This document shows positions 21,001-36,404 of a DNA stretch of 64,000 nt, piece after piece (position 1 is the first letter of the stretch; every line of letters begins with the position of its first letter). Both the position numbers and the translations under genes were made by a program. The DNA comes from Candidatus Omnitrophota bacterium (lineage in GTDB: Bacteria > Omnitrophota > Gorgyraeia > Gorgyraeales > Gorgyraeaceae), in NCBI GenBank assembly GCA_043821705.1, contig JBDRCN010000045.1:22400-86399 (forward strand). The letters are read 5' to 3'. The notes beneath the pieces are model-generated. The model made no database searches. It had not been told where the DNA came from and saw only the letters and a program-made list of their open reading frames with translations.

Positions 21001-24000
21001 ATGTTCAATCTTAGAATATGAACCTCGAAACTCTGCTTCTATAGGCTTTGAACGATTTGATAAATCCTTCGTTAGCGTTTGTCCAGTAGAAATTACTGGT
21101 ATATCTTGTATCTTTTTTGGTTTTAGTTTAGCAGTTAATATATCTTTAACTAATTCATCTTCCTGCGGTTGTATGATTGATTCTATTTCCTCTAGCTCTA
21201 AAGTCCCTTCTATTGCCTTGCCTTTACCTTTACTGGGAAAAAGACTTATTTTCTCACCAGAGCTGTATTCTCGTCCGTCAAGGGTTATGTCTTTTAAGAA
21301 AGCAACGATCCTTTCTCCATCTTCATCTCTATTGCCTATATCTACATCAATACCATTATAGAGCTTTACCCTTGTCGTATCTTCTAGCTCTCTTAAAAGG
21401 TAAAAAGGTTTTTTATTTTTTAAGACTGTATTATATACATATTTAATTGGCTCTGGAGGCAGGTATGAACGTCTTGGTTTCTTTAACTTTTTCACAGTAG
21501 AAACAGTTCTTGTCTCCTCCATATCTAACGCCCTTTTTACTTCATAACTTTTCCCATCTTTTTTAAGAGTTAGTATTAACTGATCTCCAGAATAAAACTG
21601 CTCCTGTCCTAATATATTTATCCCTTCTTCTGGGATGTTTTTGAAGGTAACTATTATTGTCCCATCAGCTTGCGGCTCGCTTAGATCTACCTTATCTCCT
21701 ATAATAAATACCTGTGCTTCGTTGTTATACGTAAAGGTAATCTCTTTTACTCCAAAGAAACTCTCTACATCATCTATAGCAGTAATTTCAACTGTGAAGC
21801 CAGGAATAAGAGGTTTTATTTCATCAGGCATCAGTGAACCAGAGTCGGATTCTTCTTCAATAATATCTGTTGGCACAAAAATAATCTTATCCTTCTCATA
21901 TTTAACCTTTACATATTGATTTCTCTCTTTTACAAATCCTATCTCGTTTTCTTCTGGCCACAGAGTCTTTTTATTTATCTTAGCTCCTTCCTTAAATGAC
22001 ACTGCCCAATCTTCATCGATATCCACCTCGGGTTGATTCCATACGTATAGCTTAAATTCCTCACCTTTTCTTACTATACCAGAAGTATTGAGCTTGTTTT
22101 TCTCTTTCTCAATCAATCCTGCTAGAATTATAGCCTTTTTAGCCATAGACTCCATTCCGCTTCTAGGGCCTTCTCCGTAATATGCAAAATTAAAGGCTTT
22201 CTTATAATAAATAGCAGAGTTCTTTAAACATGTAAGAGGATCTAAATCTTCTGGTAGATTTAATATCTTTCCAGCAGAAAAGACGTAACCCATGCTCTCT
22301 GGATCAAGCGGCTGTTTTACAGTCCTATCTCCTAAATAGAGATATATATCTCCTAATTCACTAGATGCTGTTATAAATCCTGGATCCTTCTCTAATGCCT
22401 TTTTGAATAAATCTATTGTTTCTAAAATATAATCGGGTTCCAGATTCTCTCCGTAAATTATATTATGTTTATAAAGTTCTGCCAGATTGGCATAGCCCCA
22501 GACAGAGCCTGGATCTTTTTCAATGGCCTTTTTTAAAAAATCTATTTTCTCTGATTCTTTTTTTAAGCCTACTGATGTGCTTCTTGCATATAAAATATAG
22601 GAAGATAACAGAGCTTCAGGTGTACCTATTCTAATCTTTCTATGTAGTTTCTTTTTAAAATGACTCTCTTTTAACTGCAGATATTGCCCAGGTTCAATTT
22701 TTTTGTATAGCCCGCCAGAACCTTCTAACGGAAAAGGCTCGCTTATGCCTACTCTAGGATTTGATATATCAACTATTATAGATTTGTTATCAGAAAGTTT
22801 GACTAAACTAGCTACATGATATACACCTTCTTGTACTCCACAGGACCATGTAACCTCAATAGGATCTATAGATAAGCCTGCCAATCTACCTAAGATTACA
22901 AAAAGCTGTGTAGAACCTACGCAATTAGCTGAACCAATATAGCCTTTGTCAGCATGTTCTTCATTGAAGACCTTGGTAAGAAGAGCTGGGTAATCACCTC
23001 TATCACTCTTAACTGCATTTTTTATAATTTTCGATAAACTATTAATCCTTTCTAATCTTGGCATATCTTTTATTTTTTCTAACTCATAATTATTATAAAA
23101 ACTAGAAATTTGCTCTACTATTTCCGATTGTTCTTCCAAAGAATATCCTAATTCTTCAATAGCCCCAGAAATTACTTTTTCTATATTAGTTTCAGGTTGA
23201 TTTTCTTCTCCATAACCACCTAAATCCCCCTTGGACCCTTCATTAAGGTCTAATTTCAATCCTTCACCCTTAAGCGCTGCTCTATTGTCTACATCTACAA
23301 TTAGAGATTTAATATATTCACTATCCTCTATAGATAAAAGAAAAATAGGTAATTTAATCCCCTCTTCTTCCAGGTGTTTCTTTATTGCTTCCTTCTGACG
23401 AGAAGGTAACGCTACTATAGCTACTTCATTAGGAGCAAGACGGCTAACAAATTCTTCCTCAAGAAACTCTTCTAGCTCGCCATTCTTCAGTGAATAAAAG
23501 CCTCCTTGAATAAAATGTCTACCATCGAATAAAACCGGAACTTGAATAGGAGCTTTCTGTGAATCTGTTTTGCGAGATTCCTGTTGACTAACTTTTATTA
23601 TATTCCCATCTTTATCAAATGTTACGTCAAAACTTATGTTTGCTAAAAGCATGGCAGTCCCAAATAAAGCCCCTCCTCCACCGCCAAAGGTAAATGTAAA
23701 GGTGTCTTCGCTGAGTCTAGCGGCATCATCTTCAGGTGCATCAATGCTGCTTGTATCCTTAGATTTAGGAGCAGATATTTCTTCAGTAGAAGTCTTGGTT
23801 TTTGGAGCTTGTTTGGAAGGTTCTGGTTCAACATCTATTACAAGCATACCAGTATCATTGTCTTTCTCGATACTAATATCTATCTTTTCTTTTCGAGCTA
23901 CTGAGTTAAATCTCTTTTTAAAATATTTTAATTTATCCTCATCCTTATTAAAATTATGTACGAGTAATATCCTTCCTTTAGGTTTTACTATTCGAAGAAT

Positions 24001-30849: not shown

Positions 30850-31425
30850 TTATTTAGATAGGGTTATTGTTTTTTGGGATTGGTACTTTCCTTTGCGGTC
30901 AGAGTAGGTAGTGTCACACTCTTCCTGGGACTCAAAGAATATGATCTGGGCTATGCCTTCATTAGCATATATCTTCACCTGGGAGGCTCCTGTATTGGAG
31001 ATATCCATCGTTAAGTACCCCTCCCAGCCTGGTTCTAGGGGAGTGACATTGACTATGACACCACACCTGGCATAAGTGCTCTTACCAGTACAGAGCGCTA
31101 GTACGTTCTTAGGCATCTTAAAGTACTCTAATGACCTGGCTAATACAAATGAATTCGGGGGAATAATGCAATATTCCCCCGAATGATCTTCAAATAGATC
31201 CTTATTTATATTCTTAGGATCAAGTATGTCTTCTTTCTTGCCTCTAAACAATTTAAACTCATTTGAGAGTCTTATGTCATATCCGAAGCTAGAAGGTCCA
31301 TAAGATATCTTACCATCTCTTACTTGCTTCATCTGGAATGGCTTTATAATATCTTCTTCCAAAGCCATTTTTTTTATCCAGGTATCTGGTTTTATTGACA
31401 TAGTTTTAACACTTTGAATATCCAC
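30850..31425 (-). CDS. dcd: dCTP deaminase
   Basis: [14 protein letters not shown]...[36 protein letters not shown]. The true start is probably the internal Met MSIKPDTW at about 31401, giving an ATGA overlap with nrdJ. Confidence 0.8.
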
Positions 31426-34400
31426 ATGAACGGCATACTACACAGCCTTCTTCATGGCGAAGAGCTGCTCCGCAATCAGGGCATACTCCTACAACATTAC
31501 CAAGTTTATCCTCTATCATTGTATGAGGAGAATGTTTCTCCAGCGCTTCTTCTGTATGGTACATCTTTCCATTGCCCAGTCTTAATTCCAGGACCCTTGC
31601 TATAGCATCAGCACAGGAGAATATTCTTCCACCCTTTTCCCATGACGGAGAAGGACATCTTATGCCTCTTAATTGGTCGACTATCTTTTTATTCTCTACC
31701 CCAGAACGAAGTGCTAATGATACAAGTCTTCCTATGGCTTCTAGCTGGCTTGCTGCGCATCCACCAGCTTTGCCCATCTGGATAAATACTTCGAAAGGTA
31801 AGCTATTGTCATCCACATTTATAGTAATATATAGATTACCGCACCCTGTATTTACCTTGGTAGTCGTACCAGTTGTCACTACAGGTCTTGGCCTAGGAGC
31901 CACGCTATTATCATCCTTAACCTGTTCGTCTTCTTTCTTTGATCTCTTCTTAGAGTCTATGTTAAGTACTTGTTCATCCCTAGAACCATCCCTATAGATA
32001 GTGACACCCTTACAACCTAACTTATACGCAAGCATGTATACTTCTTTCACATCATCTTTTAAAGCCTCATTATGAAAATTCACTGTCTTTGATACTGCAT
32101 TGTCAGTATGTTTTTGGAATGCTGCTTGCATCCTTATGTGCCAAATAGGAGCAATATCATGGCTTGTCACAAATATCTTCTTATATTTTTCAGGCACTTC
32201 ATCAATATCTTTTACAGAACCTTTTTCAGCAATGGACTCCATGAGTTTTCTTGAATAAAATCCTTCTCTTTTAGCTATTTCTTCGAAGAGTGGGTTTACT
32301 TCTATGAGCTTATCATTATCCATTACATTCCTATAATAAGATATCGCGAATATAGGCTCTATGCCGCTTGAGGTATTGGATATAATAGATATAGTACCAG
32401 TAGGAGCAATAGTTGTAAGAGTAGCATTTCTTCTTAAAGGCGTACTGTCTTCAGCAAAGATACTATCATTATAAGTCGGAAAAGCCCCCCGGCTCTCTGC
32501 CAATTCTTCTGACTTTATCTTTGCCTCTTCATCTATAAAACAAGCTATCTTTTCAGCTAGCTCCACTGCCTCATCGCTATTATAAGGTATCTCAAGTTTA
32601 ATAAGCATATCAGCCCAACCCATTACCCCCAGGCCTATCTTACGGTTACTCTTAGTAATTTCTTCTATTTTCTTCAGAGGGAATTTATTCATATCAATTT
32701 CATTATCAAGAAATTGCACGGCGATATTCACGAGCCTTTTTAGCTTCTCATAATCTATTTCTTTTTTTCCGTTTCCACAAACTACTTTGGAAATATTTAT
32801 AGAGCCAAGGTTACACGATTCAAATGGAAGCAAGACCTGTTCCCCGCAAGGATTGGTTGACTCATATTTTCCTAACTTTGGTGTCGGATTAAACTCATTC
32901 ATTTTATCAATAAATATCGCTCCTGGTTCACCATTTTTCCATGAGTATTCAACAATCAAATCAAATACCTCTTTTGCCTTAAGCCTGTTTACAATCTTGT
33001 CTAAATGAGGGTCTATAAGATTATATTCTTTATCCTCTATAACCTTCTCCATAAAATCTTCTGTAATTGCAACAGAGATGTTAAAATTCGTGATCTCTTT
33101 ATCATCCTGCTTACATCTAATAAATTCTAATATATCAGGATGATCCACCCTTAATATCCCCATGTTCGCGCCCCGGCGGGTATTGTGGCTAACAAAACCA
33201 TTAGCAATATATGTATGGCCTTCAGGCACGACTAAATCCAACGTTTGCTCCTGTGAATATGTAATATCCTCTATCTGGTCATAATACTGATTTTTAGTAA
33301 GTATGTCTTCAAGGAAACTTTCCTGTAAAAAATCATACTCTTCTACTAAAGTCTTGGCTCTTGCGCGTGTAAGGTTTCTTTCATTTTTTACGCCATCAAG
33401 ATAATGCCATATTTTCCTATAGAATTTATTCCGCGGCTTTAAAATAAGCTCTTCATAAAACTCCCTGAACTGTCTTGATTGATTAGGGATAATATCATTA
33501 TAGCTGATATCTCTTCTTATAATCTGGCTGAGCCGTTCTCTCTTTTTCTTACTTAAGAAGCCGATCTTTTCTTTGTAGGTTTCTAATCCCTTAGGTGTTG
33601 TAATATTTAAAATATAAAGGGGATTTCTTCCGTAAGAAGATTCCCTTTTTGTATTAACCCTAATTTTGGAAGATATGCCTAAACTTAACAATAAAACCTG
33701 CAATTGATTGATCAATCCCGAAGAAACAGAAGATAGCGCTATATGATAACCTTGTTTATCGATATGGCCATCAGCCTCAAACAAACCTCTTAAAAATCCT
33801 TCAGCGCATTTTTTGTCGCCTTTGAAAATTATGGCCGGGATAAATACCTGTAAAGCGCCATTTTTATCTACACCTATAGACTTAAGCCATTCGACTAACA
33901 TCTGGCTGTGATAAATAAGGTTAATACTTTTATCATTCTGCTTTTGTTCAAATCGGCTGTCGATTCCAAAGTTTTCTCTAACATAACTATCGAAATAATC
34001 TTTAAGTTCCAGGCAATCATGCGGAACCGCCAGCATCATCTTTCCTTTATAGAAACAACCGTCTCCTATAAAATAGCCGAGCAATTCAGCTAAATCAGGA
34101 TTCATTTCAGAAGGTAAATCACAAAGCTTACTATTAAAATGAAAGCTCCTTTCAAATTTTTCAAATTTAACTTTCTCTCCGGAAAAAGTATCCATCTGTA
34201 AGGCAGCCCAGTCGCCTTTCTTGATATCTTTTAATTCTTTCCATACATAGTTACCTTCTTTATCTATAATCCTGATCTTATGATTTAAAGTAGCGGTAAA
34301 TCTATAACCGCCTTTTGTAACTATAGTTTTAACTGGTTTAACGCCATTATTATAAAACTGCTCTGCCATCTTTACGCCTTCATCGCTAAAGACATTTAGA

Positions 34401-36223
34401 TATAAATTTTGGTATCCGCCAGGTAATGCATCAGCAAGTTCCTTGATCGGCATTAAACCTTTTTCTGTAGAAATAACTGTATTCTCTTCTACGCACCCTC
34501 CCTGCTTCACAGCCTGAGTCGCAGCATTAAAGACCTTCATAAATGATACAGGGCCGCTCGAAACGCCACCTGTAGAACGCACTACACTATTCTTAGGACG
34601 AAGCCTGGAAAAACTAAATCCAGTTCCTCCTCCCGTTTTGTGCACCATAGCCGTATTCTTAATAGCATCAAAGATAGATTCCATTGAATCTTCTATAGGC
34701 AGGACAAAGCAATTATGAACAGAGATCATATTTGCGCAATATGAATGATCTTCGTCTACTTCAAGATTATAAACTTTTTCCTGATAGTGCTGTTTTATTA
34801 TTTTAGTAATAGGTGTTAAAAGGGTATCTTCGCGAACTATAGTCCGAATATAACCTATACCTTTATGGGCAATATCGACATTTAAAAGTTCGTTTACCAA
34901 TTTAGTGCCGCTTCTACCACTAACTGCACATCTGTATGGCAAAGCTTTACCGAGTTTAGGCATTGATTCAAAATTAAGCGCAGCAAAATGTCCAGCCCTC
35001 ATAATCAATTGCCATGCTGCATACACTAAATTCATATTACACATAACAAGTTTTGTGCAGAAGTTATTGCCATTTTTGAACGTACAGCTGTCTCCACGAA
35101 ACATTCCTGCAAGCAGGCCCTTTTGTTTTTCTACCGAAAGAAGCGTGATCCAAGAAGGTATCTTTTTTGATGCATAACCTGTTCCAAATAAACCTTCAAT
35201 AAATCCAGCTAATATCTTTGAATGAAACCTTATTGATAACCATCGTCGATCAGGAGAATTCGTTTCCTCGATATAGGAACTAATTCCAAATTTTTCTTTC
35301 ACTATCTTAAGGACATCTTCACAATAATATCTTTCCTTCTCGGAGAAAACAAAACGTAAGGCATTATTATCACTGACACACCCTTCGGATAAGTAGTATC
35401 CGAATAACCTCATTAAATCTGTATCAATCTCTATTATATTTTTGACCGGATTAACCTGTTGCGAAATTTTACCTGACCTATTTCTATCTTGACTATATAC
35501 ACTGCCATCTTTTCTAACCCTGTACCTTACATCAGTATTCTTTTCATATAACATCCCATCTATATCAATAAGGTTGTTATTATTAATAAAATCCGCTATC
35601 TTAATATCCTTAACGTCAACAATCTCCTTAGGAAAACTTATTGCTATATAATCTCCTACGGATAAATCCTTTATCTGAATCCACACAGGATTGCCTCTGT
35701 CTCCTTTTTTAACCGCAAGGATAGGGTGTTCACCGGTTACCTTAAGGGTCTCGGTAGGAAGTTTATAGGCATTGAGGATATAAATTTCATTTGATTTCCT
35801 GGCAAATATTTCAGTTACCTTTCTGAATCTGTTTTTATGTGTTAATACCCATTCTCCCTCTTTTATTTCTGATATTCGCTTTGGTCCAGATCTAGTTATG
35901 ATAATCTGATCCGGTGTAAAACACGCGGATAACTGTCCAAGATCTCTCCCTGCATTCATCAGGGTAGGGCTGTTTGGCATGAAATCAAAACTACTCATAA
36001 TATCGTAAAATGATCTTTCTGTGTTTTCTACTGCTTGGTCGCTCGCTCCGTATAGTTTATCAGCCTGAGCAATATGACTGGCAACCCGCTTAAACATCTC
36101 TTCAGGTGTCTCGATTATCTTTCCTTCTTTATCTTTCTTTAGATATCTACGTTCGAGCACTGTTAAGCAATTAGTAGAGATGTTTATTTTTTTCATGCCA
36201 TTTGTTTCTAACTGCATCTTCAC
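31406..36223 (-). CDS. nrdJ: Class II (adenosylcobalamin-dependent) ribonucleotide reductase interrupted by two inteins, with a C-terminal Zn-ribbon
   Basis: Extein blocks [14 protein letters not shown] | CFVLPIED...[13 protein letters not shown]...AVKQGG | [16 protein letters not shown]-terminus is [25 protein letters not shown]. 1605 aa minus two inteins leaves about 763 aa. Confidence 0.85.
33182..34495 (-). mobile_element. Intein 2 in nrdJ (about 438 aa) with LAGLIDADG homing-endonuclease motifs, inserted in the conserved GG|RRGA site
   Basis: [16 protein letters not shown]...[14 protein letters not shown]. Internal [14 protein letters not shown] and [14 protein letters not shown]. Confidence 0.75.
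34712..35923 (-). mobile_element. Intein 1 in nrdJ (about 404 aa) with LAGLIDADG homing-endonuclease motifs
   Basis: Begins at Cys after LGQLSA ([13 protein letters not shown]), ends ...MISVHN before the C-extein Cys. Internal [11 protein letters not shown] and [20 protein letters not shown]-like motifs. Confidence 0.75.
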
Positions 36224-36313
36224 CCCCTGAATGGTTGGTTTATGGTTGGAAAAACTATCTTTTTAGATAAAAGTAAGTATATCACTTGAGGAATCTATGT
36301 CAAGTGAAAAAAT

Positions 36314-36324
36314 ACAATATATTG
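36314..36324. promoter_or_regulatory. Candidate NrdR-box-like palindrome upstream of nrdJ
   Basis: aCAATATATTGc matches the NrdR box core CwAtATaTwG. A weaker second site AAGTATATCACTT lies at about 36275..36287. Confidence 0.25.
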
Positions 36325-36404
36325 CTAGTGGAGCTTACCTCAATAACTATATGTTGTGTTTACTAGGAAACGTATTTTCCTGGAGGAAGGCCTGGAGATC
36401 TACC

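Follow-up and report, generated by a model that had tools for sequence, protein, structure and literature searches.

The 64,000-nucleotide stretch analysed here (the window: positions 22,400 to 86,399 of contig JBDRCN010000045.1 from a Candidatus Omnitrophota bacterium) encodes a class II ribonucleotide reductase (RNR) gene, nrdJ, into which two independent canonical inteins of class 1 are very probably inserted, both containing a nested LAGLIDADG homing endonuclease of the double-motif type, and protein splicing and DNA cleavage would be expected of them. A sequence-only reading had described the interval from 33182 to 35923 as a B12-dependent RNR with two LAGLIDADG inteins, and on the minus strand this interval indeed opens with the first intein 1 codon and closes with the last intein 2 codon, including a 72-amino acid (aa) piece of extein between them. 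Just as that reading had it, both insertions begin with Cys and end with His-Asn, which is followed by Cys in case of intein 1 and by Thr in case of intein 2.

The host gene is contained in a single uninterrupted open reading frame (ORF) on the minus strand (31406 to 36223; all features described below lie on this strand) that encodes 1605 aa from a GTG at 36223. A public record at NCBI (P0001, encoded on a 90.9-kb contig of a Candidatus Omnitrophota metagenome-assembled genome) is 100% identical, starts at the ATG at 36217 (1603 aa) and is named adenosylcobalamin-dependent ribonucleoside-diphosphate reductase over all 1603 aa; a public look-up returned no exact-sequence record for the 1605-aa product because the public gene call begins two codons later. 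A GGGGG ribosome-binding site lies 5 nt before this ATG, which is probably the real start of nrdJ rather than the GTG. Deleting both inserts in silico leaves a spliced extein of 763 aa that matches the NCBIfam equivalog NF006417 with 1237.5 bits (cut-off 961; residues 9-763 on profile positions 6-758 of 759) and TIGR02504 (NrdJ_Z) with 743.7 bits (cut-off 400), in agreement with the proposed B12-dependent RNR, and the Pfam RNR domains PF00317, PF02867 and PF12637 were found in the gene product as well. When scanned separately, the extein pieces adjoin in NF006417 at profile positions 96/97 and 168/169. The intein-less NrdJ of Thermotoga maritima (PDB 1xje/1xjk) is likewise colinear with the precursor across both sites, aligning in three blocks that are contiguous at residues 133/134 and 205/206, i.e., at the two points of insertion, so that the inserts appear as extra sequence.

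These extein pieces comprise an N-extein (35924 to 36223; aa 1-100) with the all-alpha N domain of RNR that ends in LGQLSA, a middle extein (34496 to 34711; aa 505-576, CFVLPIEDS...AVKQGG) and a C-extein (31409 to 33181; aa 1015-1605) with the RNR barrel, a TSCPD domain and a C-terminal Cys-rich tail (31409 to 31483). All catalytic motifs of the exteins are intact, among them NPCGE (32837 to 32854) and ESCNLGS (32801 to 32821) in the C-extein, which are spaced 11 residues apart as in T. maritima NrdJ. In the alignment, Cys134 of that protein pairs with the Cys at position +1 of intein 1. Cysteines at these positions are reported to form the redox pair and, in NPCGE, to be the thiyl residue (Larsson et al. 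2004), with KQGG/RRGA as specificity loop 2 of RNR. The host gene is thus recognizable from its sequence as encoding a B12-type class II RNR (NrdJ), with cobalamin dependence predicted by homology.

Intein 1 (34712 to 35923) spans 404 aa (aa 101-504 of the precursor) with the junctions LGQLSA^CFT…SVHN^CFVLP (^ marks the point of insertion) and interrupts a conserved RNR block at exactly the place that had been proposed, directly after LGQLSA (site A). It is composed of block A (35906 to 35923, CFTPDQ), block B (35723 to 35740, VTGEHP), a first LAGLIDADG motif ending in YLSEG (35381 to 35416), a second one ending in FRGDS (35087 to 35119) and blocks F and G (34712 to 34774). In an alignment with 33 homologues of identities down to ca. 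30%, the residues that matter for either function are invariant or nearly so, namely Cys1, His66, Asp278, His403 and Asn404 without exception, Thr63 with few, the acidic Glu180 of the first motif in at least 90% of sequences, and the residues of block F. Intein 1 matches the Pfam models Intein_splicing (PF14890; 45.5 bits, 9e-12, cut-off 35.8) and LAGLIDADG_3 (PF14528; 31.1 bits, 2.9e-7, cut-off 22.5) as well as the NCBIfam intein C-terminal model TIGR01443, while its score against Hint_2 (PF13403; 25.6 bits) falls slightly under the cut-off of 28.4.

Intein 2 (33182 to 34495) spans 438 aa (aa 577-1014) with the junctions AVKQGG^CVE…VSHN^TRRGAN and is inserted between the residues aligned to positions 205 and 206 of T. 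maritima NrdJ (site B). The sequence-only reading had placed it inside GG^RRGA, which is the right block, but the +1 residue is the Thr of GG^TRRGA and the insertion therefore lies before TRRGA. Its block A (34478 to 34495, CVEENT), block B (34280 to 34297, TATLNH), first LAGLIDADG motif (34058 to 34093, ending in FIGDG), second LAGLIDADG motif (33767 to 33805, ending in FEADG) and blocks F and G (33182 to 33244) follow the same order, and in an alignment with 44 homologues (identity again down to ca. 30%) Cys1 and Asp242 are invariant and Thr69, His72, Asp145, Asp420, His437 and Asn438 invariant or nearly so. Matches to Intein_splicing (56.0 bits, 5.3e-15) and LAGLIDADG_3 (88.1 bits, 4.5e-25) again exceed the curated cut-offs given above, and both the C-terminal model TIGR01443 and the N-terminal model TIGR01445 of NCBIfam match intein 2. 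The two LAGLIDADG-like motifs per insert that the sequence-only reading had noted are therefore confirmed, and the Pfam models recognize both inserts at a level that chance would not produce.

AlphaFold models built on the homologue alignments and compared with the PDB by Foldseek point in the same direction. The models of intein 1 (predicted local distance difference test, pLDDT, 89.5; predicted template modelling score, pTM, 0.87) and intein 2 (pLDDT 92.3; pTM 0.92) both have the TliVMA intein as best match (E 2e-22 and template modelling score, TM, 0.65 for intein 1; E 7e-29 and TM 0.72 for intein 2), with PI-PfuI, PI-SceI and PI-PkoII among the other top matches, while I-DmoI and I-Tsp061I match the central endonuclease domain alone. 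This central domain contains the alpha-beta-beta-alpha-beta-beta-alpha core twice, as seen from the matches to I-DmoI, I-Tsp061I and PI-SceI. Both inserts carry the full set of sequence and fold features of class-1 inteins (after PMC4031507) and also those of monomeric two-motif LAGLIDADG endonucleases. We give virtually no credence to the notion that the inserts are native RNR insertions or a mis-assembly or that the gene is a dead pseudogene: apart from a short native insertion of T. maritima NrdJ just before site A, which indicates that this region tolerates length change, nothing speaks in its favor, and it conflicts with the curated intein and LAGLIDADG models matched above threshold, with the predicted Hint and LAGLIDADG folds, with a frame that is open over 4.8 kb and intact extein catalytic motifs, and with junctions that are residue-exact in 36 (intein 1) and ca. 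48 (intein 2) independent homologues from many assemblies. Together with the colinearity to T. maritima NrdJ, the intein models, exact junctions and predicted folds led us to reject native insertion and mis-assembly.

Inteins require a C-terminal His-Asn followed by Cys, Ser or Thr at the +1 position (PMC4031507), and the arrangement in nrdJ most likely results in the following course of events. The precursor of 1603 or 1605 aa would be translated as one chain and be inactive before splicing because intein 1 parts the LGQLSA strand from the Cys134-aligned Cys and intein 2 splits the KQGG-TRRGA loop, both of which are essential for catalysis. Splicing would start with an N-S acyl shift at Cys1 of each intein, followed by trans-esterification to Cys+1 (intein 1) or Thr+1 (intein 2), cyclization of the terminal Asn with the penultimate His assisting, and a final acyl shift, yielding the 763-aa NrdJ and two free endonucleases. 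For homing, each endonuclease would cleave an allele that lacks its intein at the corresponding point of insertion, and repair would copy the intein in. We reconstructed 60-bp intein-less targets for site A (GCAGGGAGAGATCTTGGACAGTTATCCGCG and TGCTTTGTCCTGCCTATAGAAGATTCAATG on either side of the insertion point) and for site B (GCTGCGACTCAGGCTGTGAAGCAGGGAGGG and ACCCGCCGGGGCGCGAACATGGGGATATTA, likewise), and both endonucleases are candidate rare-cutting enzymes with predictable targets.

The NrdJ family to which the window protein belongs is an intein hotspot. Among the 120 best homologues of the window NrdJ (P0001-P0120), at least eight sites are occupied by inteins (LPN^S, NSP^C, LSA^C, HK^S/T, one near extein position 137, GG^T, NP^C and VSK^T), insertions of mini-intein size (ca. 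134 aa) occur near extein position 295, and a single polypeptide can harbor at least three inteins, with the longest reaching 2337-2426 aa. Syntenic orthologues with ca. 80% extein identity contain either only intein 1 (P0003 and P0006-P0008) or only intein 2 (P0002, P0004, P0005 and P0009-P0011), which leaves the window protein as the sole carrier of both in this group as sampled by the 120 best homologues, and the gene order BatD / TPR-SH3 / nrdJ / dcd is kept in relatives. Site A is empty in locus L001 and site B is empty in loci L003, L004 and L006. In L003, the empty site-B allele (around codon 575; window counterpart 33179 to 33181) reads KQGG-M-RRGA with Met replacing the Thr that the intein needs, so that an intein landing in this allele could not splice unless the flank was co-converted; L004 and L006 also lack intein 2 and have Thr at the +1 position.

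The DNA of the orthologous loci, compared by Nei-Gojobori estimates of the proportion of synonymous differences (pS) and of synonymous and nonsynonymous divergence (dS and dN), reveals a sharp step at the borders of intein 1. When the window is compared with L003, synonymous sites of the extein are saturated (pS 0.76), as opposed to a pS of 0.31 and a dS of 0.40 in intein 1; along the gene, pS is 0.81 and 0.70 in the bins before intein 1, stays at 0.28 to 0.33 in all five bins that cover it and returns to 0.78 and 0.72 right after, and the same step is found for L006 and L004 against the window. Such a step is the footprint expected of an element that entered after the lineages had diverged and with little co-conversion of its flanks. 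Judged from these sequences, it indicates that intein 1 spread horizontally after host divergence, and it would have moved between Omnitrophota lineages well after the divergence of their host genes. In the endonuclease region of intein 1, dN/dS is ca. 0.2, which argues for purifying selection on a putatively functional endonuclease domain. The sequence-only reading had called both elements active and selfish, and for intein 1 the presence/absence pattern and the synonymous step bear this out, with endonuclease activity as such a prediction; for intein 2 the support is weaker.

Several observations weigh against two splicing, mobile inteins. Actual splicing and actual DNA cleavage by both inteins are things that we infer, and their base composition, with a GC content of 0.35 against 0.39 for the extein and 0.36 for the window, gives no foreign signal. 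For intein 2, pS is 0.62 to 0.75 and thus about as saturated as in the extein (0.74 to 0.83), so that synonymous divergence gives no clear sign of recent mobility of intein 2; despite intact motifs, its endonuclease could be heading to decay. The nearest relative of intein 1 is only 86% identical at the protein level and its transfer is for this reason not very recent, and viral contigs yielded no close copy of either intein as a possible vector. Intein 2 may be older than intein 1 or mostly vertically inherited. We therefore see some room, if not much, for a scenario in which the inteins splice with one or both homing endonucleases inactive, late in the homing cycle, locally fixed and merely tolerated. 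The missing excess of similarity of intein 2 over the extein would fit this scenario, as would the same length and architecture of the site-B inteins in all close relatives, which suit vertical descent. It is at odds with the retention of both LAGLIDADG acidic residues in both inteins and across their families, with the dN/dS in the endonuclease region of intein 1 and a proportion of nonsynonymous differences far under pS in intein 2, and with the absence of deletions toward a mini-intein in either element, though mini-inteins of ca. 134 aa exist elsewhere in the NrdJ family.

Both inteins are patchily present or absent in closely related loci that share the gene neighborhood, which fits a parasite and not a fixed regulator, and the signature of horizontal transfer fits a parasite likewise. 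For this reason we regard it as improbable that the inteins were recruited to act as post-translational switches, e.g., with intein 1 delaying the maturation of NrdJ under oxidizing conditions, even if their positions are suggestive: intein 1 is flanked by its Cys1 and the Cys134-aligned Cys, between which a disulfide is conceivable from position alone, and intein 2 lies within the KQGG/RRGA loop. Precedents exist in the conditional splicing of other inteins such as that of RadA (PMC4513877) and in an intein of the RNR R2 protein that is said to aid iron loading (PMC8772380). More specifically, a Cys1-Cys+1 disulfide in intein 1 could make splicing redox-gated so that NrdJ would mature only under reducing conditions, which we consider very improbable. 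Splicing parasites with homing endonucleases remain our preferred explanation for both inserts.

The two intein families differ in their breadth. A scan of species-representative genomes for intein 1 returned only three loci, and its relatives of at least 30% identity come from metagenome-assembled genomes (MAGs) of Omnitrophota, DPANN and Asgard archaea, with more distant ones in other host proteins. The family of intein 2 is very large, with 9096 representatives at E <= 1e-3. Owing to the sharp synonymous step, intein 1 can serve to trace gene flow among Omnitrophota, and alleles of it also occur in the DPANN and Asgard archaea named above. One locus labelled as "uncultured Planctomycetia bacterium" (L009, CAZMID010000006.1) carries intein 1 at 81% identity, and this bin label may be wrong. 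A locus of P0006 (L006) shows the order TPR gene / nrdJ / dcd as found in the Omnitrophota loci. Annotation of the window nrdJ should mask the inteins; among its relatives, names such as "LAGLIDADG family homing endonuclease" or "TSCPD domain-containing protein" are in use.

Outside the window, intein 2 has a sister clade that presents a separate case. Out of 90 distinct proteins with an intein at GG^xRRGA, 24 have Lys, Arg, Ile or Val at the +1 position (P0036, P0037, P0051, P0087, P0096, P0097, P0164, P0168, P0176, P0177, P0184, P0186, P0187, P0194, P0196, P0199, P0202, P0206, P0214, P0215, P0231, P0243, P0244 and P0263), and those members that were traced to their source are from archaeal MAGs of Methanosarcinales, Thermoplasmata, Hodarchaeales/Heimdallarchaeaceae, Aenigmarchaeota and Woesearchaeota. 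Changes from VSHN to LVHN and from Tyr to Phe co-vary with the missing nucleophile, and the position of His427 in block F of the window intein is occupied by Ala, Gly or Ser as opposed to His or Asn in the group with Thr or Ser at +1. The clade nevertheless keeps Cys1, the T..H of block B, the terminal His-Asn and both LAGLIDADG Asp residues, and the +1 residues of further inteins within these polypeptides are normal. Window intein 2 is of the canonical Thr+1 form and no member of this clade. One review (PMC4031507) describes ligation without a +1 nucleophile solely for type A bacterial intein-like (BIL) domains, and our literature search found no publication on RNR inteins without a +1 nucleophile. 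The inteins of the clade are either non-splicing or ligate without a +1 nucleophile like type A BIL domains; splicing, if it occurs, would make them true inteins with an endonuclease and with this mode of ligation. The clade is the one item here that may merit a specialist's attention.

Around nrdJ, the window contains dcd (dCTP deaminase; 30850 to 31425) directly downstream, and the overlap of its listed ORF with the end of nrdJ by 20 nt (31406 to 31425) is probably due to a listed start that was set too early. Upstream of nrdJ lies a promoter-like TTGACA-16-TATACT with a preceding TG (TGnTATACT; 36303 to 36276), accompanied by two AT-rich palindromic boxes (ca. 36344-36359 and ca. 36313-36326; ACACAACATATAGTTA and GCAATATATTGTAT) that are ca. 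31 bp apart. The promoter-like site and both boxes are kept in L001 (2800-3000) and L003 (2790-3000), where the surrounding sequence has diverged. By position and by conservation in these two relatives only, the boxes look like tandem NrdR boxes; a search with the NrdR consensus allowing three mismatches gave three matches against 1.6 expected, which is not significant on its own. Across the whole 64-kb window, Rfam at gathering thresholds and ARAGORN detected no RNA gene, no tRNA and no cobalamin riboswitch. Directly downstream of dcd, a giant frame (1 to 30606) of at least 10,202 stop-free codons extends beyond the left edge of the window; its first 5000 aa have scattered Pfam matches (DUF4116 repeats, HATPase_c, methyltransferase, TPR) and its next 5000 aa have no Pfam match. 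Giant genes have been reported for Omnitrophota.

The closest characterized analogue of the window pair are PI-PfuI and PI-PfuII of Pyrococcus furiosus (RIR1-1 and RIR1-2), likewise two endonuclease inteins with Hint and double LAGLIDADG domains in a class II RNR. In the structural comparison, PI-PfuI (PDB 1dq3) ranks second for intein 2 (E 1e-24, TM 0.65; sequence match 1.3e-9), but the identity of the Pyrococcus inteins to those of the window is only ca. 19% and their sites are different. Mapping of the extein pieces on the Pyrococcus-type model NF006207 places them near HK^[ST]GGG and NP^CGE, and the same model is contiguous across site B of the window (profile positions 743 to 745), so that shared insertion sites could be ruled out. 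The TliVMA and PhoVMA inteins (PDB 7qss, 7qsu and 7qst) match both inteins best in structure as well as in sequence and have the same domain order, but reside in V-ATPase subunit A instead of an RNR and are only 15-21% identical. A bacterial class II RNR with several inteins is also known from a different phylum, i.e., NrdJ of Trichodesmium erythraeum, in which there are four (Liu, Yang and Meng 2003, as cited in PMC2874743). More generally, only one bacterial protein is richer in inteins than RNR, for which 211 have been counted, and Omnitrophota are missing from the 2015 list of phyla in the same study (PMC4760082); our literature search found no publication on Omnitrophota inteins. RNR intein alleles named rir1-a to rir1-m in the InBase nomenclature have been catalogued, are shared across domains and serve as markers of gene flow (halobacterial survey, PMC4071816), and they represent the same phenomenon of allelic intein families at conserved RNR sites in Bacteria and Archaea. 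Several inteins per RNR gene are textbook knowledge, and the window pair is an ordinary addition to this known kind that contributes two more RNR intein alleles from a phylum for which the literature that we searched does not discuss inteins.

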